The notes: a model not told the origin generated them from the letters alone. A DNA stretch of 64,000 nucleotides from Oscillospiraceae bacterium (GCA_017848055.1 JAGALZ010000021.1:12-64011), one strand, 5' to 3'. Counted from the stretch's first letter, positions 6,613 through 48,116 are shown. Program-made: numbers and translations.

Positions 6613-7805
6613 TGTAGTTTTGTCAATGATGTGAGACCAAAAAAGGAAAAAGAAAAGTAACGAGTTTAGTTCAATGCTTTTGCAGCCGGAAGGAGGGGCG
6701 CGCCCCAAGTGGAGACTGCAAAAGCATTGCGAGATCAAGGGCAGGGGTTTTCCATCTCCAGCTGCTTTTGGTTAGGAGATTTCCAGCCGAGAACAGCCAT
6801 AGGAATACTGTTAGAACGGCGCAGATAGCGTTTCATTTGCTCTTGCAGATCAGAGAGGGAATAGAAGCTCAAATAGTTGTAGAAGCGCTCCTGGTCGTTT
6901 CTGTGGCTCCTCTCGACCTTGCCGTTATGCCATGGCGTTCTCGGACGAATAAGCTTATGCTCAATCTTGTATCGTTCACAAAACACGTCAAACGGATGAA
7001 CACGCTTTGTATTGAAAAAATGAGTAAATTCCGCACCATTGTCGGTTTGAATTATCTTGGGAGCATAACCGAAGAAGGTGATAGCTCGCTTTACAAAGTC
7101 GATTGTAGAATAGCTGCTGTTCTCCTCATAGACATAGATAAAGCGCTTCCTTGAGGCTTCCTCAATCATGGTATATTGATAGAATTTCTTGCCGTCTTTC
7201 CCAACATAACAGACCCTTGGAACGAATTTAACGTCCATTTGCCACTTGATACCAATCATAGTTGGGGTATCATAAGGCTTGTTATGTAAGGATTTCTTCT
7301 TTGTAGACTCAGCTTTTTTACGAAATCCAAGACGAACAAACACTCGGTAGAGAGAACCGGGATGACGAGAATACGCCTTGTCCTCACGCAGCTTCCCGTA
7401 CAGTTCTCCTAAAGATATGTTGGGATTGTGGCGGTGGTAATCTTTGATCCACTTTATCTCCTGTTCGGTGTGAGCGTTCGGGTGGGGAGAATGAGGACGG
7501 TGAGACTTGGGCATAAGGGATTCTCGCGTGCCGTTATACTGCTTATTCCATCTCATCAGAGAGGCCTTTGAGATCTTATACTTCCTGCAAACGTATGAAA
7601 TGTCCTTTGTCTGACGATAAAGTTGCACGGAATTGAATTTTGTTGTGATTTCATGTGGACAGTAGCGTTTGTTTGTGGTATAATGTTTCATAAAGTGATT
7701 GAGTCCTTTCTGTTGGATTTTGTTGTGGTGACTTTATTTTAACAGAACTCAATCACTTTTTCTATACTTTTTTTCTTTTGGTCTCACATCTATTGTAACA
7801 CTACA
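6613..7805 (-). mobile_element. Insertion sequence (~1193 bp), single DDE/rve transposase, IS481-like (IS3 superfamily ends TG...CA)
   Basis: Imperfect ~45-bp terminal inverted repeats: TGTAGTTTTGTCAATGATGTGAGACCAAAA at 6613, and the reverse complement of 7761-7805, TGTAGTGTTACAATAGATGTGAGACCAAAA. One transposase ORF, flanking direct repeats, and an internal hairpin at 6672-6728 downstream of the transposase stop. Confidence 0.85.
6735..7691 (-). CDS. DDE transposase with integrase-core (rve) domain, IS481-like
   Basis: 318 aa. N-terminal HTH region (CRKYKISKASLMRWNKQY). Catalytic-core signatures WQMDVKF, IQTDNGAEFT and PWHNGKVERSHRN (D, D, E). Confidence 0.85.
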   Translation of the reverse strand: MKHYTTNKRYCPHEITTKFNSVQLYRQTKDISYVCRKYKISKASLMRWNKQYNGTRESLMPKSHRPHSPHPNAHTEQEIKWIKDYHRHNPNISLGELYGKLREDKAYSRHPGSLYRVFVRLGFRKKAESTKKKSLHNKPYDTPTMIGIKWQMDVKFVPRVCYVGKDGKKFYQYTMIEEASRKRFIYVYEENSSYSTIDFVKRAITFFGYAPKIIQTDNGAEFTHFFNTKRVHPFDVFCERYKIEHKLIRPRTPWHNGKVERSHRNDQERFYNYLSFYSLSDLQEQMKRYLRRSNSIPMAVLGWKSPNQKQLEMENPCP

Positions 7806-9937: not shown

Positions 9938-9997
9938 AACCCATGCAACCTTTTGTCACCCACCGGTGTGTTACTAGTGAAGAAGGGAGTCGGTTAT

Positions 9998-10498
9998 ATG
10001 ACGGAATTTGAAATCAAACAGTTATTTGAGAGGGCGGTTGAAGAATATTCGGATATGGTGACAGGTCTGTGTCTTGTGCGCCTCGGAAACAAGCACGACG
10101 CCGAGGACTGTTACCAGAACGTTTTTCTTAAACTGTACAAAAACAGCGAAATGCTGAATGAAAAGCCGGAGTACCTGAAGGCTTGGCTAATAAGAGTTAC
10201 GCTCAATGAGTGTAAAAACAAGTTCAGGTTCTGGAGCCGTCATAAAACTGAAACGCTCGACTTCGTCAATGATTATTACGACGACAGCCGTGACCGTCAA
10301 CTGATGGAGTGTGTGATGGCTTTACCTGAAAAGAACCGTGAAGCCATTTACCTCCATTACTATATGGGGTACACGGTAGCCGAAATCGCCACAATAACCA
10401 AGAGTCGTGAAAACACGGTAAAAAGTCGGCTCAAACGTGGCAGGGAAATGCTGAAAGAATACCTTACAGAGGATGACAAACAGGAGGCTATGTTATGA
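9998..10498 (+). CDS. ECF-type RNA polymerase sigma-70 family factor
   Basis: RBS GAAGGGAG upstream of ATG 9998 (ORF open from 9953). Region 2 (EDCYQNVFLKLY) and region 4 HTH (YTVAEIATITKSRENTVKSRLKRGREML). Stop overlaps the next start (ATGA). Confidence 0.85.
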   Translation: MTEFEIKQLFERAVEEYSDMVTGLCLVRLGNKHDAEDCYQNVFLKLYKNSEMLNEKPEYLKAWLIRVTLNECKNKFRFWSRHKTETLDFVNDYYDDSRDRQLMECVMALPEKNREAIYLHYYMGYTVAEIATITKSRENTVKSRLKRGREMLKEYLTEDDKQEAML

Positions 10499-12276
10499 AA
10501 AACTTAAACAATATATTTACTGATATCAAAACACCGGACAGCTGGAAGAAGAATCTCTACTCCAAGGCTTATGCACAGAAGAAGCAGTCAACACCGGTAT
10601 TCAAGAGAGTAGCAGTAGGCACAGGAATTGCGTTTGCTGCAGCAACAACTACTCTTACAGTTGGAGCACTTACAGATACTTTCAATATCGTAGATGTTCT
10701 CAGAAACGGCTTTGGTGACGATGTTACAGCTTCGAAGATTGACAGCGGCGATTATCAGAAGCTTGAAAACTTCATTCAGACAGAAGACATCGAATTCAAG
10801 GTTACTGCCTTCGTAGGTGATTCTGAAGAAAGCTATACACTCGTTGAAGCAAGACTTAAGGATTCGGCTAAGGAGCTTGATATCCAGAATCTCAGCATAC
10901 GTGCGCTTGTGCTCGGAGAAGAAATTGACGCTTCACAGTTCGGAACAGAGCTTGGACAGTACTTTGGCGACGTATATGAAGCAACGCTTTCAAACGATGA
11001 AAACGGCGATATAGTGTATAACTTCAGAGTTGATAACTATCCCGCCTGGATTGAAAGTGCAATCGCTAACAAGTCAAACCTCAACCTCTGGATTCAGGAA
11101 ATCATTGTTACCGATTCAAACGGCGAGAATAAGGTTCAGGAGATTATGAAGAACACATCCTTTATGCCTGAAAGAGATGCTGTAAGCACAATTCCTTATA
11201 TCCGCTTTAACAAGAATATAACCGCTAACGGTGCAAATGTTCTCCTCGACGAAGTTGTCCCATCTGACTATAAGACAACTGTAAACTTCAGCTTCAACGT
11301 AAGCACCGATAAGCCGACAGTTGATGAAAATATGCCATACTGGTTCGAGGGCGAAGAAGTAGCAAGAGCACTTATCTCCTTCAAGGGTGAGGATGATTAC
11401 CTCTTTACAAACCTCTACGAAGAGGATAACTATGATTACTCGCTTACTTCCGCTGATAGCAATATCAAGCTCTATGTTGATGATAAGCTCGTAGAATTCT
11501 CTAAGACTGAAAAGCCATTTGTAATGTATCAGCAATACTCTGATGGCGATTTCAAGAGCCTGCCTACATTTATTCTCAGCGTAAACTTTGCACCTGCTCA
11601 AATCAGCGACGCTTCCAAGCTCAGAATTGAGATTACAGAGGAAAATGGTAACGTAATTACTATAAACGGCTCTGAAAGCAATGACGAAACAGCATCTTCC
11701 GATTCCAAGGCTCCAGAGAATAACGTAGAGGTTCCTGAAGATAGAATTCCTTCCAAGAATGAGGATAACAAGCAGGATGATTCAATGGCTGAAGACGCTT
11801 CAACGGAAGATAACATAAGCGAAGATGTGTACGAAACAGCCACAGATATGTATACTGAAATGAACAGCATTCCTGCAAGAATTATCAGTCTTGCAAATAA
11901 TGATGACAGTACGACCTCTCTGTATATCGAGTACACACTCGGAGAACATGAGCTTGCAGCTGATGACTTCGAAGGTGTGTGGAATGCAGGAGTAGCTATT
12001 TCTAAGGAAATGCTCAGCTACAGTGATGATTTTAACGGAAAGAACAGCTCGGTAAAGCTTACAGTTGACGGCAAGGAGCTTTCTTATATCGCTGCCTCTG
12101 AAGATGAACAGACAAAGCCTCTTGAGCTTACAATGTTTGTTGACGAGCAGGATTACACCAAGAGCAGCTTTCTTATCGAGCTTAACTTTGAGTACTCTGA
12201 CCTTGAAAATGCGACATCTATTATTGTAACATGCGAAAGCTTAAACGGTACTGTTGTAACATCAACAATCAGATAA
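10495..12276 (+). CDS. Putative anti-sigma factor, single-pass membrane protein with large extracytoplasmic region
   Basis: Translationally coupled to the sigma gene. Short cytoplasmic N-terminus, one TM (VAVGTGIAFAAATTTLTVGAL), a ~530-aa external part with an acidic low-complexity linker, and two related C-terminal segments. Confidence 0.6.
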   Translation: MKNLNNIFTDIKTPDSWKKNLYSKAYAQKKQSTPVFKRVAVGTGIAFAAATTTLTVGALTDTFNIVDVLRNGFGDDVTASKIDSGDYQKLENFIQTEDIEFKVTAFVGDSEESYTLVEARLKDSAKELDIQNLSIRALVLGEEIDASQFGTELGQYFGDVYEATLSNDENGDIVYNFRVDNYPAWIESAIANKSNLNLWIQEIIVTDSNGENKVQEIMKNTSFMPERDAVSTIPYIRFNKNITANGANVLLDEVVPSDYKTTVNFSFNVSTDKPTVDENMPYWFEGEEVARALISFKGEDDYLFTNLYEEDNYDYSLTSADSNIKLYVDDKLVEFSKTEKPFVMYQQYSDGDFKSLPTFILSVNFAPAQISDASKLRIEITEENGNVITINGSESNDETASSDSKAPENNVEVPEDRIPSKNEDNKQDDSMAEDASTEDNISEDVYETATDMYTEMNSIPARIISLANNDDSTTSLYIEYTLGEHELAADDFEGVWNAGVAISKEMLSYSDDFNGKNSSVKLTVDGKELSYIAASEDEQTKPLELTMFVDEQDYTKSSFLIELNFEYSDLENATSIIVTCESLNGTVVTSTIR

Positions 12277-12360: not shown

Positions 12361-14019
12361 TTATTTGTTGCTAAGAATGTAGCAAAGGGTGAATACAGTA
12401 GGTGAGTTCCAGTAAATCGTAATCTCATTCAGTGAGTAACACCCAACGTCATCCATGAAGGACTTCATCGGCGGGACATCGCTTCCGAATCCTGTTACTT
12501 CCATGTCATTCGGACAAGGACGACGGTTAGGGCCGCCGCTGACCATACCTGGCATACATCTTTCAATACCGTCAGCGTGTGCAGGACGCAGGTGAGGGTA
12601 GTTCACGCAGAAATCACCCGTTCCACTTACATATGAATAACCCGTAGCATTGACACCCAGGAGATAATCAAACTGTGAACAAGCATAGCTGTAGTAATTG
12701 TTGTCGTTTGAAATAATGTCAGCAAGAGCAAAATTCATACCCTGCTTCATAAGTATCATATTGCTGCCCCAGCAGTAATCAAGCTCGGTCATCGCAACTC
12801 TGTAACCACAGTTATCTGAATAATCTCTGAGCTGCTGAGCCTTTGAACGTATCGCAGATTTCATGGCAGATGAAATCTCATCATCAAGGTTTTCTTTACC
12901 GCTGAATAGATATGCCATTGAGCCAAATCCGCCAACCGAGCCATATCCCAAATCTGAAAGAGAAAATTCCTTGGATATAAGACGCTTAATGTCATCGTGA
13001 TACTTGATATCACCGGTAAGCGAGAACATCTCACAGCTTGCCCAGAAACGGTTGTCTGTATCGTCGCTTTCCCAGTATGGGCCGGTGTTGTTTCCGTTCG
13101 GGTTTCTGAATTCAACAAAGTTGGGATTAGCTTCAAGCCAGCTGTATGCACTCATTGAAGCCTTATAAAGTTTCTGTGCGAACTCTTCATCATACTTTTT
13201 GTATATACCGCTTGCAAGCGCACAGATAGCACTCAGGTCAGCCGTAGCTATAGATGATACCGAGAATACGTAAAGCTGTTCCTTGTCATCCTGCGGCATT
13301 ATAAACGGTGCATGAAGTGCTGTCGTTACCTTGTGATATACTCCGCCATCATTGCGTTGCATTTTAAGCATCCATTCCAGCTCGTAGCGGCATTCGTTCA
13401 ACATGTCGGGAGTAGCATTTCCGCTTTCGGGAATATTAAGCTGAAGCTTATCCAAAACATCGGGGAAAAGCTTACAAGCATAGAGAAGATGGGACAGAGC
13501 ACAGCAAGCTGCCGTAACATATCTTCCGTAATCTCCCGCATCATGCCAGCCACCGCTAACGTCAAGCTCCTGCGAATGGTCATCCCAGAGCACCGCCTTG
13601 GATGTGTGACATTCAGGGTGGGTATATTCTCCTGCATTTTCCTCCTTTAACTCACATCCACAACGCAGAAAGTAAAATGCTCTGATAAGGTCATAAAGAG
13701 TCTTATCATAAACTTTATCTGATATCTCAAATGAGAGTGATTTATCTCCATTGTCAAGTTCAATGCGATATCTGCCGCATTCAGTTACCTTTGAAAAATC
13801 AGCAAAATAAACCGAGTCCTGAGAGTATTTGTCTTTGCCGAAATATGTTGTGTCGCCAGTGAAAATCTTGTTTCCGTTTTCATCTATGACGCAAAAGCTT
13901 TTAGCAGAGGAAGTGATTGTAGCAATCTTCTTGCTGTTTGGAAGATATCCTGCCTGGTTAACAAATATAGAAGTGTTAAAGCACCTTAACGGTGATTTAT
14001 TCAGTTCATGTTCTGCCAT
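12361..14019 (-). CDS. Glycoside hydrolase family 9 (endoglucanase/cellodextrinase) with N-terminal Ig-like CelD_N domain, no signal peptide
   Basis: DVSGGWHDAGDYGRYV (GH9 catalytic DAGD signature), C-terminal YSLNEITIYWNSP (acid Glu region), N-terminal IFVNQAGYLP. No hydrophobic leader. Confidence 0.85.
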   Translation of the reverse strand: MAEHELNKSPLRCFNTSIFVNQAGYLPNSKKIATITSSAKSFCVIDENGNKIFTGDTTYFGKDKYSQDSVYFADFSKVTECGRYRIELDNGDKSLSFEISDKVYDKTLYDLIRAFYFLRCGCELKEENAGEYTHPECHTSKAVLWDDHSQELDVSGGWHDAGDYGRYVTAACCALSHLLYACKLFPDVLDKLQLNIPESGNATPDMLNECRYELEWMLKMQRNDGGVYHKVTTALHAPFIMPQDDKEQLYVFSVSSIATADLSAICALASGIYKKYDEEFAQKLYKASMSAYSWLEANPNFVEFRNPNGNNTGPYWESDDTDNRFWASCEMFSLTGDIKYHDDIKRLISKEFSLSDLGYGSVGGFGSMAYLFSGKENLDDEISSAMKSAIRSKAQQLRDYSDNCGYRVAMTELDYCWGSNMILMKQGMNFALADIISNDNNYYSYACSQFDYLLGVNATGYSYVSGTGDFCVNYPHLRPAHADGIERCMPGMVSGGPNRRPCPNDMEVTGFGSDVPPMKSFMDDVGCYSLNEITIYWNSPTVFTLCYILSNK

Positions 14020-23511: not shown

Positions 23512-23853
23512 GTGAGCAGACTATGCGATAGCGTGAACGAAAAAGTTCATGAGGAAAGTCCGAGCATCACAGAGCAGGGTAACTGATAACATCAGCCGAG
23601 GGCGACCTTAGGGCAAGTGCAACAGAAATATACCGCCGCTTTTGCGGTAAGGGTGGAAAGGTGCGGTAAGAGCGCACCGGATTATCTGAGAGGATAATGC
23701 CGTGTAAACCCTACCCGATGCAACTCCAATGGTAAACCGAAAACCAATGTCTGCTCGGCAGGTTCAGGTTTATAGGAGGCTTGAGCTTTACGGCAACGTA
23801 AAGACTAGATAGATTATCGCACACGACAAAACTCGGCTTATCGGTCTGGTCAC
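23512..23853 (+). ncRNA. rnpB: RNase P RNA, bacterial type A
   Basis: Universally conserved GAGGAAAGTCCG (23551-23562), GTGCAACAGAAA, GGTGGAAAGGTGCGGTAAGAGCGCACCG and GACAAAACTCGGCTTATCGG (23825-23844). The 5' GTGAGCAGAC pairs with the 3' GGTCTGGTCAC (P1). Closely parallels E. coli M1 RNA segments. Confidence 0.93.
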
Positions 23854-23860
23854 TACAAAG

Positions 23861-39109: not shown

Positions 39110-39952
39110 TTAATTCTTGAAAAAAGCAACTGCAACAGCACCCGGGCCAACGTGAGTTCCGACAACGCTGCCGATAGTGGTGTAGCTTAAGTTTTCAACA
39201 TTACCTTCCCAGAGGTAAGAGCTATCTTCTTTGTACTTCAAGAGAAGGTGGTCGCTGAGACCTGTAAAACCGAGCATAACAGGCTTTGTAAAGTCAACAC
39301 CGCCAGCTGCTTCGATTTCCTTTACAAGAAGATTGTTGCCCTGCTTTGAGCCTCTTGCCTTGCCAAGCATTCCGACAACGCCATCCTTAACACATATTAC
39401 CGGCTTTATGGAGAGTAATCCACCTGCAAAAGCAACAGTCTTTGAAATTCTTCCGCCCTTCTGCAGGTATTCAAGTGTGTCAAGAAGTGCGATGACAAGT
39501 ACCTTTTCTCTCTGCTCAGTAATTATCTTTGCTATTTCCTTAGCATTCATACCATCATCACGAAGCTTGAGTGCATATTCCGCAAGAACACCAAGACCGA
39601 TAGTTACAGTAAGACTGTCTACAACCTGGATTTTATCGCCGAAATCCTGAGCCGCAATAACAGCACTCTGATAAGTTCCCGAAAGCTTCGAAGAAATTGT
39701 CAGAACAACAGCATCATCGCCGCTTTCTACTACCTCTTTGAATACATCTGAAAAAGCCGCAGGTGTAACCTGACTTGTAGTCGGAAGAACATCGCTTTCA
39801 ATAAGCTTTTCATAAAACTGTTTGTGATTGATTGTAACGCCGTCAATGTATTCTTCGTCACCGAAGTGAACGGATAGAGGAACAACGGTGAATTTACCGT
39901 TAAGGCTTTCGTTTATGTCTGCTGTCGAGTCAATAATAATTCTTGTTGCCAT
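39110..39952 (-). CDS. DegV family fatty-acid-binding protein
   Basis: IIIDSTADI N-terminus and 280 aa, typical of the DegV fold family. Confidence 0.85.
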   Translation of the reverse strand: MATRIIIDSTADINESLNGKFTVVPLSVHFGDEEYIDGVTINHKQFYEKLIESDVLPTTSQVTPAAFSDVFKEVVESGDDAVVLTISSKLSGTYQSAVIAAQDFGDKIQVVDSLTVTIGLGVLAEYALKLRDDGMNAKEIAKIITEQREKVLVIALLDTLEYLQKGGRISKTVAFAGGLLSIKPVICVKDGVVGMLGKARGSKQGNNLLVKEIEAAGGVDFTKPVMLGFTGLSDHLLLKYKEDSSYLWEGNVENLSYTTIGSVVGTHVGPGAVAVAFFKN

Positions 39953-39965
39953 TATGTTTAACTCC

Positions 39966-41345
39966 TTATTTTAAGAAAATATGCAAGAGCTTTTCGTAAA
40001 AGCTGTTGTAAGGCTGATACCTCATAGGAAGGTCAAGCCATACCTTTTTGTCAACGATGCTCTTTGTATGCGAAAATGCATTGAAACCGTCTTTCCCGTG
40101 GTAACAGCCCATTCCGCTTTCTCCGACACCGCCAAAGCCCATTTCGCTTGTCGCAAGATGAATTATTGTGTCGTTGATACATCCGCCGCCGAATGAGAGC
40201 CTTGAGGTAAGTGCCTTAATATTTTTCTTGTTAGTAGAGAAAATATACATTGCAAGTGGCTTTTGCTTGTTCTGAAGACTTGAGATAACATCATCAAGGC
40301 TGTCATATGTGAGAATCGGGAGAACAGGGCCAAAGATTTCTTCACCCATTACAGCATCATCCCACGATACGTTATCCATTACTGTCGGCTCAATTCTCAA
40401 AGCGCCAGCATCGTAGTTTCCACCACATACCACCTTATCATTATTGATAAGCCCAATTAGTCTGTTAAAATGCTTCTCGTTTATGATTTTACCGTAGTTT
40501 TTATTCTGGAGAGGATTCTCGCCGAACTGCTTTACAATTTGAACAGTAATCTCTTTCACAAGCTCATCTTTTATTGATTTGTCGCAAAGAACATAATCAG
40601 GTGCAACACAGGTCTGACCGCAGTTCAAGTACTTTCCGAATACAATTCTTCTTGCCGCAAGCTTAATTTTTGCGCTACTGTCCACAATGCAAGGACTCTT
40701 TCCGCCAAGCTCCAAAACAACAGGTGTCAGATACTCAGCAGCGTGCCTCATAACTTCCTTGCCTACAGCCTGGCTACCGGTGAAGAAAATCATATCGAAC
40801 TTCTTGTTCAGAAGCTCTGCATTTTCTTTTCGTCCACCCGTTACAACGGCAATATATTTTTCGTCAAAGCATTCTTTGATAAGCTCCTCAATTACATTGC
40901 TCGTAGCAGGGGAATACGCGCTCGGTTTTACGATTGCCGTATTTCCTGCGGCAATTGCGTCGGCAAGCGGCCCAAGAGTAAGCAGGAACGGATAGTTCCA
41001 AGGACTCATAATCAGCACGTTTCCATATGGCGACGGCTTTTTAAAGCTTCTTGAAACGAACTCGTGAAGGGGTGTGTGAACACGTTTTTCCTTTGAAAAT
41101 TTCCTTGTGTGTTTTATCATGTACGAAAGCTCACTCTGAACCATTCCTACTTCGCACATGAATGCCTCAAAATTGCTTTTTCCAAGGTCTTGTTCAAGCG
41201 CAGAATAGATTTTCTGTCGGTTATCTTCAATTTTGTTTTTAAGCTTTTTGAGCATGGATATTCTGAAATCAGCAGGAATTGTTGCACCCGTTCTAAAAAA
41301 ATCTCTTTGCTCGTTTATCAGCCTGTCCATTCTGTTTTCCTGCAT
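39966..41345 (-). CDS. NAD(P)-dependent aldehyde dehydrogenase (class 3-like)
   Basis: ELGGKSP and NCGQTCVAPDY (catalytic Cys). 459 aa. The start overlaps the upstream stop (TAATG). Confidence 0.88.
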   Translation of the reverse strand: MQENRMDRLINEQRDFFRTGATIPADFRISMLKKLKNKIEDNRQKIYSALEQDLGKSNFEAFMCEVGMVQSELSYMIKHTRKFSKEKRVHTPLHEFVSRSFKKPSPYGNVLIMSPWNYPFLLTLGPLADAIAAGNTAIVKPSAYSPATSNVIEELIKECFDEKYIAVVTGGRKENAELLNKKFDMIFFTGSQAVGKEVMRHAAEYLTPVVLELGGKSPCIVDSSAKIKLAARRIVFGKYLNCGQTCVAPDYVLCDKSIKDELVKEITVQIVKQFGENPLQNKNYGKIINEKHFNRLIGLINNDKVVCGGNYDAGALRIEPTVMDNVSWDDAVMGEEIFGPVLPILTYDSLDDVISSLQNKQKPLAMYIFSTNKKNIKALTSRLSFGGGCINDTIIHLATSEMGFGGVGESGMGCYHGKDGFNAFSHTKSIVDKKVWLDLPMRYQPYNSFYEKLLHIFLK

Positions 41346-42556
41346 TATATTTCAGTCCCTTCGTAAACCATATAGTAGAACTTTTCGAGCTCCTTAGCAT
41401 TCATAAGCTTTGGAACGGGATAAAGAGGATTTGCTTCCTTGTCGGCGTGTTTTGCCATTACAGGAATATCTTCCGTTCTTATCTGACTAAAGCTTTCCCC
41501 GATATTCATTCTTTTATTAAGACCTCTTATGTGTGCGATAAATCTCTCTGCTGACAGAGCGATATCATCGCTTTCTTTTGACATGCCTACTGAAACTGCA
41601 AGCTTGTGAAGCTTGCTATGTATGGTATCGCCGTATTCCTTGAGTACAATCGGCAAAAGTACAGAGTTTGCAAGTCCGTGAGAAATGTTGTACTGACCGC
41701 CCAGGGAATGTGCAACCGCATGAACATAACCAACATAGGACTGTGTAAATGCCGCTCCTGCAAGATACGACGCTCTGAGCATGTTTTCTCTTGCCTGCTT
41801 ATTGAGGGGATGATTGTATGCCGTCTCGATGTTTTCATAGATAAGCTTTATTGCCTCAATAGCCATTCTTCTTGTCTTTTTAGTTGTCGAACGTCCGATA
41901 TAAGCCTCGACAGCGTGGGTGAGGGCATCCATACCGGTGGTTGCAGTCAGGTGCTTTGGAAGTGAGTATGTTACTTCAGGGTCAAGCACAGCGTATCTTG
42001 GAATAAGAGGAAATGAGTTCATAGTGTACTTGTGCTTTTTCTCACTGTCAGTAATAACAGAGGTAAGCGTAACTTCGCTTCCGGTCCCGGCTGTTGTCGG
42101 AACTGCAATAAGAAGAGGAATCTTCTTTATAATCTTAAGAATACCCTTCATATCATCAAGTGTTCTGTTCGGGTATGCAACTCTTGCACCGACTGCCTTT
42201 GCACAGTCCATGGGAGAGCCACCACCGAAAGCAATAATAACCTGGCATGAATTATCGTTATATATTTTTAGAGCAGCTTCAACATTGCTGACCGTCGGGT
42301 TTGGCTGAACCTTATCATAAACAAAGCATTCGATACCTTTGTCCTTAAGATTTTCTTCAAGAGATAAAGTAACCTTATTTACTCTGAGCATTGTATCGGT
42401 AACAAGTAAAACCTTCTCTATATTTTTTGACTTCAGTATCTTAGGTATCATATCAGTACTGCCGAGAATTTTAGGTTCACGATAGGGGAGCAGAGGAAGT
42501 GCTATACGAAAGCAAGTCTGAAAAATTCTGCAGTAAAGCTTCTTAATTGGATTCAT
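41345..42556 (-). CDS. Iron-containing alcohol dehydrogenase
   Basis: GGGSPMDCAKA, VPTTAGTGSEVT, and the His cluster HAVAHSLGGQYNISHG. Confidence 0.88.
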   Translation of the reverse strand: MNPIKKLYCRIFQTCFRIALPLLPYREPKILGSTDMIPKILKSKNIEKVLLVTDTMLRVNKVTLSLEENLKDKGIECFVYDKVQPNPTVSNVEAALKIYNDNSCQVIIAFGGGSPMDCAKAVGARVAYPNRTLDDMKGILKIIKKIPLLIAVPTTAGTGSEVTLTSVITDSEKKHKYTMNSFPLIPRYAVLDPEVTYSLPKHLTATTGMDALTHAVEAYIGRSTTKKTRRMAIEAIKLIYENIETAYNHPLNKQARENMLRASYLAGAAFTQSYVGYVHAVAHSLGGQYNISHGLANSVLLPIVLKEYGDTIHSKLHKLAVSVGMSKESDDIALSAERFIAHIRGLNKRMNIGESFSQIRTEDIPVMAKHADKEANPLYPVPKLMNAKELEKFYYMVYEGTEI

Positions 42557-43007
42557 TTTCAGGTATTCCTTTCGTACTCATAGATTCGATGTTGTGTGCA
42601 AGCAGATTAAGTGTTTTATAAAAAACATCTCTGTCACTTTCGGACATACCTTTTCCTGCACCTTCAACAGCTCTTCTTGCCGAGTCAGAGATATGTGCAG
42701 CAGCATCAAATCCGTCAGCTGTAAGCTTTAAAAGTGCCTTGTAAATATTATTATTTACTTTTTCTCTGTATATAAGTCCCTTTGATTCAAGCTCAGAAAC
42801 AGCTCTTGATATAGCTGCTTTGTCCTTGTCACAAAGCTCACAGAGCTGAGTAGAGGTAAGTCCGTCCTTAAAACGGAAAAGTGTAGTTAGGCATTGTGCG
42901 TGAGGCCCCTTTAGTCCGAACTTAACCATTTCATCTCTCTCGATTTTCTGAATATACTTGTAAATTGCCGCTATTGCGACCGAAAACATCTCGTATCTTT
43001 CAACCAT
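42543..43007 (-). CDS. MarR family transcriptional regulator
   Basis: Winged HTH LTSTQLCELCDKDKAAISRAVSELESKGLIYR. ATG 43007 lies 7 nt after GGGAGG (the ORF-track start at 43022 is a TTG inside the RBS). Overlaps the ADH gene by 14 nt. Confidence 0.85.
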   Translation of the reverse strand: MVERYEMFSVAIAAIYKYIQKIERDEMVKFGLKGPHAQCLTTLFRFKDGLTSTQLCELCDKDKAAISRAVSELESKGLIYREKVNNNIYKALLKLTADGFDAAAHISDSARRAVEGAGKGMSESDRDVFYKTLNLLAHNIESMSTKGIPENESN

Positions 43008-43021
43008 TTCGGTTCCTCCCA

Positions 43022-43043
43022 ACTTGTTGATTTGTCAACATCT
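43022..43043. promoter_or_regulatory. MarR-type operator copy 1 (ACTTGTTGATTTGTCAACATCT)
   Basis: 22-bp element containing the palindrome GTTGA-N4-TCAAC, between the -10 and the RBS of marR. Confidence 0.65.
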
Positions 43044-43048
43044 TGATT

Positions 43049-43077
43049 ATTATACACTATACTTGTTGATTTGTCAA
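43049..43077 (-). promoter_or_regulatory. marR-adh-aldh operon promoter
   Basis: On the minus strand: TTGACA (43077-43072), 17 nt, TATAAT (43054-43049). The -35 lies inside operator copy 2. Confidence 0.7.
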
Positions 43078-43082
43078 CATCT
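43061..43082. promoter_or_regulatory. MarR-type operator copy 2
   Basis: Exact 22-bp repeat of 43022-43043, 39 bp away. Confidence 0.65.
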
Positions 43083-43195
43083 TTTTGAAAATGTGTATGA
43101 TGCATCATAATTTCTAACGTTTATATCGGGTAATATGTCTATAATATTGAATTTATCGGGAACGTATGATATACTTTGTTAGGGAGATGATTTAA

Positions 43196-43636
43196 ATGAC
43201 TATCAGAAGTATGACTATAAATGATTATAAGTCTGTATATGCTTTGTGGCTCTCGTGCAAAGGAATGGGACTGAATAATCTTGATGATTCAGAAGACGGC
43301 ATAGAAAGATTTCTGAAGAGAAATCCCGATACCTGCTTTGTTGCGCAGGTCGATGATAAAATTGTCGGCGTTATTATTGCAGGAAATGACGGCAGAAGAG
43401 GATACATATATCACACAGCAGTAAATCCCGAGTTTAGAAAGAGGGGAATCGGGAAGGCACTTGTCGACAAAGCACTTTCTGCACTTAAGGATTGTGGGAT
43501 AAATAAGGTTGCGCTTGTCGTGTTTGAAAGAAACGAGAATGGCAACGAATTCTGGGAGAATATCGGTTTTTCTAAACGTGATGACCTTGTATACAGAAAC
43601 AAAGCCATAAGTGAGATTATCAGGATTGATACCTGA
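43196..43636 (+). CDS. GNAT family N-acetyltransferase
   Basis: Motif A YIYHTAVNPEFRKRGIGKAL. 146 aa. Confidence 0.85.
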   Translation: MTIRSMTINDYKSVYALWLSCKGMGLNNLDDSEDGIERFLKRNPDTCFVAQVDDKIVGVIIAGNDGRRGYIYHTAVNPEFRKRGIGKALVDKALSALKDCGINKVALVVFERNENGNEFWENIGFSKRDDLVYRNKAISEIIRIDT

Positions 43637-43664
43637 CGCAAATAATACAGTTGATGTAAAAAGC

Positions 43665-43702
43665 AAAGCCCGTAGAAGTATTTTCTTCTACGGGCTTTTT
43701 AT
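43665..43702. terminator. Bidirectional terminator
   Basis: AAAGCCCGTAGAAG-loop-CTTCTACGGGCTTT. Confidence 0.8.
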
Positions 43703-43725
43703 TGCTTATTATTCTTTCAACTACT

Positions 43726-44475
43726 TTATTTGATTTTCTTAGCTTCAATTTCCACCCAAGCCGGTCTGAAACCACTGTTGAGAGCGATATTCTGTGACTG
43801 TGTGTTAGCTGTTGCGGTACCATAAAAGGGAGTGTCACCCATTTCGATGATTTTGTTCTTGAGTAGCGTCACAAGATAGGTGCCTATCCCTTTTGAACGG
43901 TATTGAGGCAGGGTGTCTATTCCAATTTGCTGCCAATGCGGTGCATCCTCTGAACAGCCTGCCATTCCCATTATAGTATCTCCATCGACTGCGACGACAG
44001 CGATTCTGTCAGGTCGAACAGGACATGGCGTAGGAAAAGCGATTGCATTAGGAAACTGCGGATTACCGTAAAACTGTGCTATTTCGTCATCATAGAACCA
44101 TTTCACTTGATAGCGTTTTTCAACCTCAACATTTCTGCAAGGCAGGAACATATGATGTGTTGATGCCATCTTATAGCCGTATTTCTTAAGTTCTTCGTTC
44201 AAAGCAGTAAGGTTTCCGAATTCAAAGAGTCTATGACCTTCAACATCCTTGATAAATCCACTCAGGAACTTGTGCAGACATTCGTTTGCCATAATGACAG
44301 TACCTCTGCCAAGCGTCACCATCTGCAAAAATGGTTTATCGGGGCTGTAATCACGTCTGCCCTCATTGAGTTTTGATACTGTGATTGTATTCTCGTTTGC
44401 CTGAAGGTCTTCAGGAGTGCAGTTGTAATCTATTGACAACTGTTGCAACAGCTTTTGATAGTATTCTTTGAACAT
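43726..44475 (-). CDS. GNAT family N-acetyltransferase (C-terminal acetyltransferase domain)
   Basis: LPQYRSKGIGTYLV motif A in the C-terminal half. 249 aa. Confidence 0.7.
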   Translation of the reverse strand: MFKEYYQKLLQQLSIDYNCTPEDLQANENTITVSKLNEGRRDYSPDKPFLQMVTLGRGTVIMANECLHKFLSGFIKDVEGHRLFEFGNLTALNEELKKYGYKMASTHHMFLPCRNVEVEKRYQVKWFYDDEIAQFYGNPQFPNAIAFPTPCPVRPDRIAVVAVDGDTIMGMAGCSEDAPHWQQIGIDTLPQYRSKGIGTYLVTLLKNKIIEMGDTPFYGTATANTQSQNIALNSGFRPAWVEIEAKKIK

Positions 44476-44603
44476 ACTTCCACCCTCATTTCTTTATTAT
44501 GTCTTTCGCTTAACCGAACATATCGGACGTGTCATATTCAGTCAACTGCACAGCAACAGAAAGTCACCTTTGACAGAATATCAAAAGTGACTTTTAATAA
44601 TTA

Positions 44604-45473
44604 TTATTCATCAATTGATGTAAGAACTCCGATTGCCTTGACACCTGCACCAACGTGGCAGCAGATGCTGATAGGGAGCTTGTACATCTGAATGCTGTCA
44701 TCACCGAAAAACTCTCTGCAGGTTTTGAGCCATTCGTTTGCTGGCTCAATATCACCAGAGTATGCAAGTCGGATTGTAATCTTTCTTCCCGCAAATCTTT
44801 CTTCGCAGTCTTTTTTAATAGCATTGAGCATTGTCTTTTCAGCATTTGCCATACCTCTTACCTTAGCAAATGCATCGAGCTTTTCGCCTTGAATCTGAAG
44901 TACAGGCTTAAGTCCGAGAATTGTAGCAAGTGCTGCACCTGCCGATGTAACTCTTCCGCTCTTTTTAAGAAGCTCAAGAGTGTTTACAGCAAGATAAATT
45001 GAGCAATCAAAAGCGGTTTCTTCAAGCTTTTCGCAAATCTCTTTAGCTGAAAATCCCTCGGTTGCGAGCTTTAAAGCATCAAGTACAGACTGCATCTGTG
45101 TTATGGAAATACGCTTGTTATCAACAACACACACTTTGCCATTATAGTCAAGCGCCAAGGACTTTGCAGTAGCACAAGAACCGCTTAAAGCCGACGACAT
45201 CGGAATGTAAACAATCTCGTCATATTCCTCTAAAAGCTTATCCCAAATGGAAGTTAGTGCATACGGAGCAGGCTGCGAGGTTGTAACATTCTTACCCTCA
45301 GCGAGCATCTCGAAGAACTCCTCATATGTACAGCTTTCGTTTTCAAAATATTCTTTTCCTTCAACAATAAAAGGCATCGGAATCAGGTATACACCAAGTT
45401 CCTTTGCGTAATCAGTAGAGATACCGCTGTTAGTATCGGTAACAACTGCAATTTTCTTCATAATTTCAATCAC
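44604..45473 (-). CDS. DegV family fatty-acid-binding protein (second paralog)
   Basis: KIAVVTDTNSGIS N-terminus. 289 aa. Confidence 0.85.
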   Translation of the reverse strand: MIEIMKKIAVVTDTNSGISTDYAKELGVYLIPMPFIVEGKEYFENESCTYEEFFEMLAEGKNVTTSQPAPYALTSIWDKLLEEYDEIVYIPMSSALSGSCATAKSLALDYNGKVCVVDNKRISITQMQSVLDALKLATEGFSAKEICEKLEETAFDCSIYLAVNTLELLKKSGRVTSAGAALATILGLKPVLQIQGEKLDAFAKVRGMANAEKTMLNAIKKDCEERFAGRKITIRLAYSGDIEPANEWLKTCREFFGDDSIQMYKLPISICCHVGAGVKAIGVLTSIDE

Positions 45474-45545: not shown

Positions 45546-48116
45546 TTATTTGTCGAGTGAATCAATGTATGCCCTGATTGCTTCTTCTACCGATTTTACG
45601 TCCTCGTAAAGCTCATTTGCGGTCATTCTCAGAGCACCTGCACCCAGAATAATAATCTGTTCGAGTCCATCTGACGTTGCAACTTTTACTCTATGTTGCT
45701 TTGAAAGCTCATGTGCCGTCTTTTCTATGTAAGTATCAGCAGTCTGAGCGGTTTTTGTGTACACAACAGTAATGTTTCCGTGTTTTTCAACTTCTCCCGA
45801 GTGAGATGGAACCTTATATGCATCAAATACAACTATTACCTCGCATTGTTTGAAGCCTTGATAGTTGCACATTGTGTTGATAAGCTGACTTCTTGCCAGC
45901 TCCATGCTGTCCTTAGCATATTTTTTGAGGTTTTCCCAAGAATGGATTATATTATATCCGTCTACAAGCAGATATTCAGTTTTTCCCGCAACAATAGAAG
46001 GTGTCTGCTTCTTGGTATTAATCTCTTCCTTTGGCTTTCTCATAGCATAACGTTTTTCACGTTTTATAGTGCCATAGGTGTTCTCGAAGATTTTCATAAG
46101 CTCCTCGTCCTCTGTAGCACGGCGACAGAAATCGCTTGCTCTCTGTAGCGTAATGAAGCTTTCGTCGGCACCTCGTTTGATATCAGGCGATACGTGCATC
46201 CAGGAAGCACACTCGTCCCAAGGCACTACAATACCCGCACCATGCGAACAGAAAACAGAATCGGCAGTATTATCAATATCGCTGTCACAGTTGTATTTTA
46301 TTTCTTCAATAACCTTTTCAGGGTCAATACAAATGTCATAACCGCTGTTCTGGCAGAAAATCCTGCCCCTGCCTTTGGTGTACGCTGTGATATCATTCGG
46401 ATAGTCGAGCAACCTGCTCACCGGAGCACGTCCCGTGATTGTTGCTTCATCGTCAATTATCTGTGGAGCTTCAAAATCAGCGTGCATATTTTCAAGGTCT
46501 GTCATAGCCCTGCCTATGCATTCTGAGGGGATTGTAAGATTAAAGTCATAGTATGGCTCAAGGAGCATACTGCTTGCGTGTCTTAGTGCGTGTCTTACAG
46601 CTCTGTATGTAGCCTGCCTGAAATCTCCGCCTTCAGTGTGTTTTAGATGTGCCTTGCCCGCCTGAAGAGTGATTTTTATATCTGTAATAGGTGAGCCTGT
46701 AAGAACACCCTTGTGAGTCTTTTCTTTTAAATGTGTAAGGATAAGCCTTTGCCAGTTTCTTGAAAGAACATCCTCACTGCAGTCGGATTCAAATTTAAGA
46801 CCGCTTCCCCTCGGCAGAGGCTCTAAAAGCAAATGAACCTCGGCATAATGTCTCAGCGGTTCGTAGTGACCTGCTCCTCTGACGGGTTCTTTGATAGTTT
46901 CCCGATACGAAATACAACCGGTATCAAACTGTATCTGTGTGCCGAATCTGTCCATCATCATTCTGGTTATAATGTCAAGCTGAACCTTACCCATAATCTG
47001 AATGAGGATTGCAGAGGTTGATTCATCAAAAATAATACTGAGAGTCGGGTCTTCGGTTTCCAGAACTTTTAGCTGTCGAAGCAGAGTAGGTGAGTCAACG
47101 CCCTGAGAAGTGGTAGTAACTCTATATGTGAGCACCGGCTCTAAAAGCGGAGTGCTTACTGCACAATCAGCGCCGAGTCCCTGACCTGCGTAAGTTGCTG
47201 ATAGACCTAAAACTGCACACACAGTTCCTTGACGGGCAGTTTCAGCGGTTTTAAACTTTTCTCCGTTATAGATTCTGATTCGGCTTATTTTCTCCGAGTT
47301 TTCATTTCCAAGCTTGTCCGTGTAAGTGATAGTATCTCTGACGCTGATACATCCGCCCGTAACCTTCAAGTATGTAAGACGGCCGTCATTTGGGCTTTCC
47401 TGAATTTTGTATATCCTTGCAGAGAATACGTCGCTTTCATCATCTGTAACGGTATAAGCACAAAGTCCGTCAAGAAGGTCATCTATGCCGTCAAGCTTAA
47501 GCGCAGAACCAAAATAACACGGGAAAACATGTCTTTTATAGATTGCCTGGGAGATGTCCTGCTTTTCAAGAATTCCGTCATCGAGATAGCGTTCCATGAG
47601 CGACTCACTGCATAGTGAGAGCTCATCATAAAGAAGGTCTTTTTTTGAAGTAAAGTCAACACAGCCCTCAGACAGTTTTCTTGAAAACGAGGCAAGCACA
47701 CTATCTCTGTCCGCCCCCTGCATATCCATCTTGTTTACGAAAATGAATGTTGGGACGTTATAACGTTTTAAAAGCTGCCATAGGGTGACCGTGTGGCTCT
47801 GAATTCCTTCACTACCACTGATTACAAGAATTGCGGCATCAAGCACCTGGAGTGTTCTTTCGGTTTCAGCTGAAAAGTCAACGTGTCCCGGTGTGTCGAG
47901 CAATGTAAATTCAGTATCTCCATATGTAAAGCTCGCCTGCTTTGAAAATATAGTAATACCTCTTTCACGTTCAATTGTATCAGTATCAAGGAAGGAATCT
48001 CTGTGGTCAACTCGTCCGAGCTTTCTGATTTCTCCGCACTTGTAGAGCAGTGCTTCAGAAAGGGTGGTCTTGCCCGAGTCAACGTGAGCTAAAATCCCTA
48101 TAACAGCTTTTTTCAT
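45546..48116 (-). CDS. Translational GTPase (TetM/TetO/EF-G family) fused to a C-terminal YacP/Rae1-type NYN ribonuclease domain
   Basis: G1 AHVDSGKTT, G2 RGITI, G3 DTPGHVDF and G4 NKMD, then EF-G-like domains II-V to aa ~640. The last 144 aa (nt 45549-45980) read EYLLVDGYN...VIVVFDA...TAQTADTYIE...VATSDGLEQ, matching B. subtilis YacP/Rae1. One uninterrupted 856-aa frame. Confidence 0.8.
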   Translation of the reverse strand: MKKAVIGILAHVDSGKTTLSEALLYKCGEIRKLGRVDHRDSFLDTDTIERERGITIFSKQASFTYGDTEFTLLDTPGHVDFSAETERTLQVLDAAILVISGSEGIQSHTVTLWQLLKRYNVPTFIFVNKMDMQGADRDSVLASFSRKLSEGCVDFTSKKDLLYDELSLCSESLMERYLDDGILEKQDISQAIYKRHVFPCYFGSALKLDGIDDLLDGLCAYTVTDDESDVFSARIYKIQESPNDGRLTYLKVTGGCISVRDTITYTDKLGNENSEKISRIRIYNGEKFKTAETARQGTVCAVLGLSATYAGQGLGADCAVSTPLLEPVLTYRVTTTSQGVDSPTLLRQLKVLETEDPTLSIIFDESTSAILIQIMGKVQLDIITRMMMDRFGTQIQFDTGCISYRETIKEPVRGAGHYEPLRHYAEVHLLLEPLPRGSGLKFESDCSEDVLSRNWQRLILTHLKEKTHKGVLTGSPITDIKITLQAGKAHLKHTEGGDFRQATYRAVRHALRHASSMLLEPYYDFNLTIPSECIGRAMTDLENMHADFEAPQIIDDEATITGRAPVSRLLDYPNDITAYTKGRGRIFCQNSGYDICIDPEKVIEEIKYNCDSDIDNTADSVFCSHGAGIVVPWDECASWMHVSPDIKRGADESFITLQRASDFCRRATEDEELMKIFENTYGTIKREKRYAMRKPKEEINTKKQTPSIVAGKTEYLLVDGYNIIHSWENLKKYAKDSMELARSQLINTMCNYQGFKQCEVIVVFDAYKVPSHSGEVEKHGNITVVYTKTAQTADTYIEKTAHELSKQHRVKVATSDGLEQIIILGAGALRMTANELYEDVKSVEEAIRAYIDSLDK

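Follow-up and report, generated by a model that had tools for sequence, protein, structure and literature searches.

A 64,000-nucleotide stretch of DNA from an Oscillospiraceae bacterium (GCA_017848055.1, JAGALZ010000021.1:12-64011; hereafter the window) encodes, on its minus strand at 45546..48116, a single polypeptide in which a translational GTPase resembling EF-G and the Tet ribosomal protection proteins is joined to a C-terminal endoribonuclease domain of the NYN_YacP (Rae1) type. The fusion architecture is already known, and sequence comparison identifies the window protein as an orthologue in a published family. We infer, at what we judge to be an even chance, that the fusion would act as a GTP-gated factor tethering a Rae1-type nuclease to stalled ribosomes and feeding trans-translation. 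An mRNA-cutting, ribosome-bound rescue factor is a more likely identity for it than the tetracycline-resistance protein of its frequent annotation. The present analysis adds the scale of the family and a residue-level conservation pattern that includes two previously undescribed conserved elements, together with failed membership in the Tet family, the absence of mobility, and a corrected premise about the ribosomal A site.

The gene is a single uninterrupted, ATG-initiated open reading frame (ORF) of 856 amino acids (aa) plus stop, and we judge the start codon to be correct because homologues open with the same MKK.VIGILAHVD sequence. Its parts, with coordinates in the window, are as follows.

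45546..48116, minus strand: whole fusion ORF, 856 aa plus stop, in a single frame
47454..48104, minus strand: G domain, residues 5-221, with P-loop AHVDSGKTT, switch I RGITI, DTPGH containing the catalytic H78, and NKMD (Pfam GTP_EFTU)
47181..47426, minus strand: domain II, residues 231-312, a beta-barrel in both predicted models (EF-G_D2)
46926..47141, minus strand: domain III, residues 326-397 (EFG_III)
46575..46919, minus strand: domain IV, residues 400-514, with the family-specific GxGH(Y/F)EPLRHYAEVH at 414-428 (EFG_IV)
46614..46652, minus strand: domain IV tip loop AHLKHTEGGDFRQ, residues 489-501 (alignments to TetO and EF-G)
46329..46565, minus strand: domain V, residues 518-596 (EFG_C)
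46194..46328, minus strand: domain V appendage, residues 597-641 (conservation and predicted structure)
46074..46166, minus strand: helical pair, residues 651-681, with D.ELM.IFE.TYG (conservation and predicted structure)
45978..46070, minus strand: variable, basic tether predicted to be disordered, residues 683-713 (predicted local distance difference test score, pLDDT, 30-40 in both models)
45549..45977, minus strand: NYN_YacP (Rae1-type) endoribonuclease domain, residues 714-856, with D719, D765, D794, and D816 (Pfam and Rae1 alignment)

Pfam models match along the whole chain: GTP_EFTU at residues 5-221 (E = 3e-51), EFG_III at 326-397 (E = 2.8e-10), EFG_IV at 400-514 (E = 3.6e-22), EFG_C at 518-596 (E = 6.7e-16), and NYN_YacP (PF05991) at 716-850 (E = 3e-50; 170.8 bits against a gathering score of 24.6). 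The EF-G_D2 match at residues 231-312 lies marginally below its gathering score (26.7 bits against a cut-off of 27). The NYN part aligns with residues 3-138 of B. subtilis Rae1/YacP (PDB 5MQ8) at E = 7e-25, and sequence searches of the PDB with the GTPase part return TetO (8e-81), TetM (2e-79), and EF-G (about 1e-72). When the AlphaFold model is used as a Foldseek query, ribosome-bound EF-G is matched at E = 3e-53 and TetM (3J9Y) is also found, with alignments of about 690 columns. These E-values, and the fact that other genomes preserve the single frame, exclude a chance origin. In alignments, the G' subdomain is short, as in Tet proteins, and the G domain is about 78 aa shorter than that of EF-G.

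These results bear out much of an initial annotation made from the window's sequence, which had described one uninterrupted 856-aa frame, an N-terminus running parallel to those of TetO and TetM, and a YacP/Rae1 pattern with its acidic residues; every motif that it quoted is found, and of the Pfam models that it proposed as a check, GTP_EFTU, EFG_III, EFG_IV, EFG_C, and NYN_YacP give a match, domain II being matched marginally by EF-G_D2. Its description of a complete GTPase followed by EF-G-like domains II-V also stands, although the extent of about 640 aa that it assigned to this part does not, domain V ending near residue 596. Nor is there a plain linker of about 70 aa between the two parts: the inter-domain segment amounts to about 118 aa (597-714), and its first portion, residues 597-641, is a conserved module.

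We assessed conservation in three sets of sequences, comprising 21 and then 85 close homologues (55-97% identity), 73 full-length cluster representatives (39-50% identity), for which residue counts are given over 74 sequences, and 80 loci from reference genomes. In the GTPase, D13, G15, K16, T55, D74, G77, N128, K129, and D131 are each present in 74/74 sequences, and the catalytic H78 of the DTPGH motif is present in 73. The NYN residues D719, D765, D794, D816, N722, and Q820 are likewise found in all 74. Alignment to 5MQ8 shows D719 and D794 to be the counterparts of Rae1 D7 and D81, with D765 and D816 equivalent to D53 and D104; the D7N D81N double substitution is the published catalytically dead form of Rae1, and mutation abolishes activity (PMC10351889). 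Both catalytic centres, which the initial annotation took to be intact, are so across the 74 sequences, and because their residues are invariant at an overall identity of 39-50%, both activities appear to be under purifying selection.

Two elements of domain IV are more than 90% conserved at this same level of overall identity. In the first, at 414-428, H417 is present in 74/74 sequences and E419, H423, and E426 in 73/74. In the second, the tip motif AHxKHTEGGDFRQ (489-501), the counts are 70/74 for K492, 71/74 for H493, 70/74 for T494, and 72/74 for D498, and the motif is invariant among both the 21 and the 85 close homologues. The two elements occupy the sites of GGxGQYGH and SYH(D/E)VDSS in EF-G, and of loop III (YSPVS) in TetO and TetM.

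Beyond domain V, the appendage (597-641) retains S620, F622, and G626 in 74/74 sequences, C623 in 70/74, and W633 and H641 in 69/74. Its predicted fold comprises a helix (599-606), a beta-hairpin (620-624/627-631) formed by ADSVFCSHGAGIVVPW, and a second helix (636-639) ending in MH; AlphaFold assigns it a pLDDT of 73-85 when the 85-sequence alignment is supplied and below 50 with 21 sequences. Neither a Pfam match nor a sequence-profile relative in the PDB was found for this segment. A universal CCHH zinc site made up of C596, C623, H625, and H641, Cys/His residues to which the initial annotation had drawn attention, was considered and rejected, the four positions being conserved at 88%, 95%, 77%, and 93%. 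Such a site is unsupported because H625 is replaced by Asn, Gln, or Gly in members from Lachnospirales, Acetivibrionales, and Desulfitobacterium; position 625 is His in the window protein and in Oscillospirales, and a zinc site may be confined to some lineages. The helices that follow (651-669 and 671-681) have pLDDT values of 54-64 in the 85-sequence model, their motif is invariant in the close family, and E672 and I676 are found in 66/74 and 70/74 sequences. The tether (683-713) varies in sequence and length among homologues, and in the fetched loci the spacing between the SxFC motif and VDGYN has a median of 102 aa (range 88-217). After the NYN domain, members from Lachnospirales, Acetivibrionales, and Desulfitobacterium carry a C-terminal tail of 25-40 aa ('RNYL.DAL...') that corresponds to the C-terminal part of the NYN_YacP model; in P0146 the match to this model covers positions 1-161 of 166. 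The window protein and other Oscillospirales members end before this tail, and the window match covers positions 1-137 of 166.

The fusion is widespread. All of the best 120 matches in a collection of 5.8 billion proteins (845-884 aa) have the whole architecture, and an exhaustive search with the extension and NYN parts gives 426 clusters (at 50% identity) with E <= 1e-30. Long cluster matches range from 830 to 1156 aa with the matching region at the C-terminus, and the longest have the same domains plus insertions; one protein of 1156 aa (P0136) has about 300 aa inserted into its G domain (residues ~130-430), its GTP_EFTU match spanning 3-520, and the insert has no Pfam match. A search of one genome per GTDB species, using an alignment specific to the extension, places the fusion in at least 440 genomes, mostly Oscillospirales. 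Among the best 80 of these genome matches, for which loci were studied in detail, are members from Ruminococcus, Oscillospiraceae, Oscillibacter, Monoglobus, Acutalibacteraceae, Faecalibacterium, and Ruminiclostridium. At 70 of the 80 loci the gene runs complete in one frame of about 839-922 aa and has every motif (seven of the 70 reading LIDGYN), at nine it is broken off by contig ends, and at one it has a frame break. The single break, in a metagenome-assembled genome (L079; MSHM01000009.1, ~10441-10447), falls at about residue 735, just inside the NYN domain, and could be an assembly error or a pseudogene. The survey of spread that had been proposed thus finds the fusion to be common, and the reading of one gene as opposed to two split genes holds. 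The fusion is neither an artefact nor rare, and it is kept as one frame across several clostridial orders.

The fusion is not a new architecture, having been published in 2015 (PMC4342817) and 2017 (PMC5499597). Atkinson and co-workers (BMC Genomics 2015, PMC4342817, Additional file 8) listed ten 'Tet + NYN_YacP' proteins, placed them in the Tet subfamily with speculation on a novel resistance mechanism, and suggested a test for RNase activity. Their sources were R. albus 7, [Eubacterium] eligens, E. rectale, Butyrivibrio proteoclasticus, C. cellulolyticum, C. lentocellum, L. phytofermentans, C. thermocellum, and two strains of D. hafniense (PMC4342817). Matelska and co-workers (NAR 2017, PMC5499597) described 'TetM-NYN_YacP fusion proteins' from some Clostridia, whose role they considered unclear. 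The published proteins have the same domain order as the window protein in one polypeptide (GTP_EFTU, EF-G domains II-V, C-terminal NYN_YacP). The member from D. hafniense DCB-2 (YP_002458689.1) is 49% identical and collinear over window residues 1-852, and proteins from R. albus strains SY3 and GCA_000526775.1 (P0032 and P0041) are 59% identical to it. Published members, including R. albus 7 YP_004106010.1, share GH(Y/F)EPLRHYAEVH, KHT(E/Q/D)GGDF, SVFC, and the NYN catalytic motifs with the window protein. Nothing essential differs, the window protein being an orthologue from another Ruminococcus-type species that lacks the tail of 25-40 aa. The claim that the architecture lacks functional characterization fits our searches of the full-text literature, which found no functional study of the fusion, and recent Rae1 papers (PMC12407103, PMC13622287) contain no mention of it. 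The expectation that automated pipelines would label the protein a Tet or translation-factor GTPase is also borne out by database names, which among the best matches include 'TetM/TetW/TetO/TetS family tetracycline resistance ribosomal protection protein', 'translation elongation factor G', and 'translation factor GTPase family protein'.

The proposal that the fusion is a ribosome-directed nuclease draws on what has been learned of Rae1. The NYN_YacP domain and the D7 and D81 equivalents are common to both proteins; Rae1, however, stands alone as a protein of about 170 aa and binds ribosomes only transiently, whereas the NYN domain of the fusion forms the C-terminus of an 856-aa GTPase. By analogy, the fused domain probably works like Rae1, cutting RNA on the ribosome. 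Rae1 cuts mRNA only under translation; its cleavage site lies at the tail of the stalled ribosome, 12 nucleotides (nt) upstream of the A-site codon, and its placement in the A site has been withdrawn by the laboratory that proposed it (PMC12407103). In addition, Rae1 is required for the rise in transfer-messenger RNA (tmRNA) tagging that follows ribosome collision, generating tmRNA substrates, and its transient binding accounts for the lack of a ribosome-bound structure (PMC13622287). The view of Rae1 as an A-site nuclease, on which the initial annotation had relied, is consequently out of date, Rae1 having been placed since 2025 at the tail of stalled or collided ribosomes. The accompanying idea of a GTPase-delivered ribosomal nuclease still seems to us the best hypothesis, once the premise of cutting in the A site is dropped.

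We envisage that the GTP form of the fusion would dock at the ribosomal factor-binding site, with domain IV entering an A site that is vacant or aberrant, either on a stalled ribosome or on the trailing, rotated ribosome of a collision. The tethered NYN domain might then cut ribosome-bound mRNA nearby, either on the entry side or in the inter-ribosome stretch to which cutting by free Rae1 is now assigned. GTP hydrolysis would free the factor, and the truncated mRNA would pass to tmRNA and SmpB. Built-in, GTP-gated docking would in this way supply a ribosome affinity and state-selectivity missing from free Rae1, whose own binding is weak and transient. By analogy with known EF-G complexes, a factor bound to the trailing ribosome should lie close to where mRNA enters it, and this variant fits the Rae1 data best because the entry site adjoins the -12 region of the ribosome in the lead.

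Several points weigh against this proposal. On a lone ribosome, such a factor would by the same analogy be nearest to downstream mRNA at the entry channel, whereas free Rae1 cuts upstream, at -12; the geometry would match that of Rae1 only if the trailing ribosome is bound or the tether reaches far. The predicted models do not fix where the NYN domain lies with respect to the GTPase body (predicted template modelling score 0.47-0.53), and no conserved link to smpB or ssrA is seen in the loci examined. Across the family, which RNA is targeted (mRNA or rRNA), which ribosome state is recognized, and what GTP contributes are putative assignments. Finally, 'replacement' of Rae1 by the fusion is a putative relation, the stretches searched for a stand-alone copy being parts of genomes. 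No second NYN domain is present in the window or in 1.37 Mb of 86 fetched loci, and the cysS-mrnC-rlmB-yacP-sigH neighborhood typical of stand-alone yacP is absent around the window fusion. In R. albus, where the canonical sigH/yacP position was approached from rpoC, rpoBC is not preceded by the rplKAJL/nusG cluster. Short matches containing only the NYN domain in the representative search are mostly gene fragments on contigs below 3 kb, the searchable part of the Monoglobus assembly was 518 kb, and the other 'plasmid' records probed from that assembly are 0.6-3.8 kb long.

A more elaborate version of the proposal, which we regard as tentative and rather less probable than the general one, makes the fusion a dedicated, GTP-gated mRNA endonuclease for stalled or collided ribosomes. 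Here the His/Lys-rich domain IV tip would sense an empty or aberrant A site, or a rotated ribosome blocked in translocation, the appendage and tether would set the nuclease at the collision interface, and the fusion would stand in for free Rae1 in much of the Clostridia. Collision nucleases are known in E. coli SmrB and in yeast Cue2/NONU-1, and eukaryotic Hbs1-Dom34 is a GTPase-delivered factor at the A site of stalled ribosomes. The fusion might share with these systems the concept that a stalled or collided ribosome is recognized and an endonucleolytic cut in the mRNA feeds rescue. SmrB and Cue2/NONU-1, however, have the SMR fold, which is unrelated to NYN, and in those systems sensor, GTPase, and nuclease are separate, whereas the fusion has GTPase and nuclease in one chain.

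Because several alternatives turn on the genes around the fusion, we consider these before weighing them. In the window the fusion lies in the order SDR, fusion, DegV, and MarR, which recurs in the closest genome. It begins 24 nt past the SDR stop codon, no terminator-like site is present between the two genes, and a promoter-like site lies upstream of SDR; on these grounds the SDR and fusion genes are likely to be co-transcribed, a pairing specific to the lineage of the window. Two DegV paralogues (39110-39952 and 44604-45473) bracket a cluster of aldehyde dehydrogenase, Fe-ADH, and MarR genes (window 39110-45473, minus strand), and GCA_054278255.1 (L004) shows synteny with the window in the order SDR, fusion, DegV, MarR, Fe-ADH, Aldedh, apart from two extra ORFs that the window has between MarR and DegV (43196-43636, plus strand; 43726-44475, minus strand). 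In R. albus the genes rpsL-rpsG-fusA-tuf immediately precede the fusion, which is separated from tuf by about 175 nt and extends the str operon cluster (L001 5268-12577; L087 16144-23453), and adjacency to tuf is not seen in the 80 reference loci. The only recurring neighbor that we found is trmO, directly downstream on the same strand in about 8 of the 80 loci, a subset of the Oscillospiraceae, at a distance of 14-28 nt (L009, L016, L019, L039) or about 500 nt (L017, L026, L029), or overlapping the fusion (L005). Some Oscillospiraceae have NUDIX upstream together with trmO downstream, and smpB lies about 2 kb from the fusion in Anaerotruncus only. A conserved partner gene or operon was sought and rejected: as flanking genes, SDR and DegV are confined to the closest relatives, tuf to R. 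albus, and trmO to the minority of loci just given. Neighbors vary between lineages, and all are housekeeping genes.

The window is a piece of ordinary chromosome from a fibrolytic bacterium of the Ruminococcus type; genes for FeoB, a GH9 cellulase, and an arabinofuranosidase lie in it, as does the pur operon. A sigma factor of the extracytoplasmic function type (181 aa) overlaps a 593-aa ORF without a Pfam match (9953-12276, plus strand), and the GH9 cellulase gene (12361-14019, minus strand) adjoins this pair. A similar pair, comprising a 167-aa sigma factor and a 551-aa protein without a Pfam match, is found in R. albus between rpoC and rpsL (L001 2944-5077), and the two may be SigI/RsgI-like polysaccharide-sensing pairs. 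A full-length class A RNase P RNA (RF00010; 263.6 bits) is encoded at 23513-23856 on the plus strand; it is the only Rfam match at gathering threshold in the window, and no Rfam match to a regulatory RNA lies near the fusion gene. The sole mobile-element gene in the window is an ORF with an rve integrase core, of the insertion sequence/transposase type (6735-7691, minus strand), 38 kb from the fusion.

Collections of plasmids and phages contain no genuine instance of the part specific to the fusion. 'Plasmid' matches with full coverage, which measure 252 and 518 kb, are non-mobilizable. The larger record, Monoglobus pectinilyticus 'plasmid 12' (L090; NZ_OY725736.1), carries secA, prfA, prfB, nrdD, and tsaC-type genes along with the fusion, and is a chromosome fragment or chromid, not a plasmid. 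A similar appearance is shown by C. difficile 'plasmids', about 100-150 kb long and in several cases from single-cell assemblies, that carry a stand-alone NYN gene. The fusion gene is chromosomal, vertically inherited, non-mobile, and housekeeping-like.

Among the alternatives to a rescue nuclease, the one that survives best, although we think it unlikely, is a factor directed at rRNA or tRNA, which would dock on ribosomes or late assembly intermediates and use the NYN domain to process or cleave rRNA in biogenesis, in quality control, or in inactivation and turnover under stress. The EF-G paralogues LepA and BipA have been linked to ribosome biogenesis, and the invariant tip of domain IV, rich in His and Lys, would be well matched to an rRNA target that is universally conserved. 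The trmO genes directly downstream in about 8 of 80 loci, and the position of the R. albus fusion after the str operon, point in the same direction, as does the location of stand-alone yacP with mrnC, which acts in 23S maturation, and an rRNA/tRNA methyltransferase gene (PMC5499597). This idea of a role for YacP in rRNA maturation, however, came from gene neighborhood only, and no conserved rRNA-processing partner adjoins the fusion in the loci examined. Moreover, Rae1, the only characterized NYN_YacP protein, cuts mRNA in a manner that depends on translation and on reading frame.

Much less probable is the reading as a true tetracycline ribosomal protection protein to which a nuclease has been added as an accessory, even though the best NCBIfam and PDB matches are Tet proteins and Atkinson and co-workers classed the fusion among them while speculating on resistance (PMC4342817). 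Tet(M) and Tet(O) (PDB 3J9Y, 4V6V) do resemble the fusion in their five domains, their short G' subdomain, their overall sequence, for which they are the best match, and the presence of an extension after domain V. The scores, however, fall far below the curated cut-offs: 439.7 against 775 for tet_protect, 312.5 against 1100 for tet_protect_M_W (TetM/W/O/S), 267 against 1420 for Tet(M), and 321 against 900 for Otr(A). Loop III of Tet proteins displaces tetracycline, its Pro509 contacting C1054 (PMC4750697, PMC8161019). In the fusion this loop (LYYSPVS, with Pro509) is replaced by the unrelated, invariant KHTEGG motif, TetO 'glyyspvstpadfr' being aligned to 'gkahlkhteggdfr'. Tet proteins, of about 640 aa, have a short extension ending in a helix that is needed for activity, whereas the fusion has an unrelated, nuclease-bearing extension of 260 aa, and the alignment to Tet proteins stops near fusion residue 597-609. 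Tet determinants are, in addition, patchily distributed, horizontally transferred, and carried on mobile elements, whereas the fusion is chromosomal, lineage-wide in related Clostridia, and found in housekeeping contexts with no mobile-element genes nearby. Drug displacement also gives no explanation for an invariant nuclease active site. By score, loop III, C-terminus, and distribution, the protein thus fails, as far as its sequence can tell, to qualify as a Tet ribosomal protection protein; the 'TetM-like' label of the initial annotation holds for overall sequence likeness, although the loop that defines Tet proteins is not conserved. Docking at the site shared by EF-G and Tet proteins, as proposed above, would be unaffected by this failure.

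The protein is not the housekeeping EF-G either. Fold, domain order, and GTPase motifs are common to EF-G (fusA) and the fusion. The decoding-centre loops GGxGQ(Y/F)GH and SYH(D/E)VDSS of EF-G are, however, replaced in the fusion, its G' subdomain is shorter, and it scores below both EF-G models (311 against 659 for TIGR00484 and 350 against 583 for NF009381). The EF-G of R. albus, encoded beside its fusion gene, is 25% identical to the fusion, and we regard the latter as an additional EF-G paralogue because R. albus keeps a canonical fusA next to it. No fusA lies within the window, the canonical gene being seen in this relative.

We consider it highly improbable that the fusion is a toxin or defence device that shuts off translation, for example an abortive-infection effector destroying ribosome-bound RNA, as the initial annotation had also suggested. 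NYN and PIN nucleases are common in defence and toxin systems, and two contigs from human faeces labelled 'UNVERIFIED: Bacteriophage sp.' encode the fusion (L089, MT835563.1, 5397-8024; MT835514.1, 17028-17810). The first of these also encodes NAD(P)H-hydrate dehydratase, a peptidoglycan-binding protein, and a citrate transporter, none of the ten ORFs tested on it is a phage hallmark gene, and it is probably mislabelled bacterial DNA. PADLOC models return no family at E <= 0.01, and the loci examined contain no conserved antitoxin, immunity, or sensor gene, the neighbors being those of housekeeping regions and not of defence islands. The occurrence of the fusion in at least 440 species genomes likewise argues against such a role. 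A catalytically silent NYN domain, serving as an RNA or ribosome anchor for a GTPase that acts otherwise (in back-translocation, splitting, or release), has the SMR domain of B. subtilis MutS2, which binds the collision interface without cutting, as an analogy and is similarly improbable, since inactive domains usually lose residues such as the four acidic positions, N722, and Q820, which all 74 sequences retain, the D7 and D81 equivalents included.

The naming of the fusion after Tet proteins in gut and rumen genomes could yield false antibiotic-resistance calls in metagenomes, because the protein often bears a Tet name although it falls below the Tet cut-offs and has no drug-displacing loop, and at least 440 species genomes encode it. 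The domain IV tip AHxKHTEGGDFRQ and the SxFCxxG hairpin appended to domain V are uncharacterized, predicted ribosome-facing elements in an EF-G paralogue. The fusion also poses the question of how the nuclease is targeted, and the Rae1 work of 2025-26 makes it timely. As a natural covalent fusion of a Rae1-type nuclease to a GTPase, it offers a handle on the transient engagement of Rae1 with the ribosome in the form of a trappable complex; if our proposal is correct, locking it with a non-hydrolysable GTP analogue would lead to the first structure of a substrate-engaged Rae1-type nuclease. The fusion would then represent, in one polypeptide, a bacterial counterpart of a GTPase-delivered sensor plus a collision nuclease.

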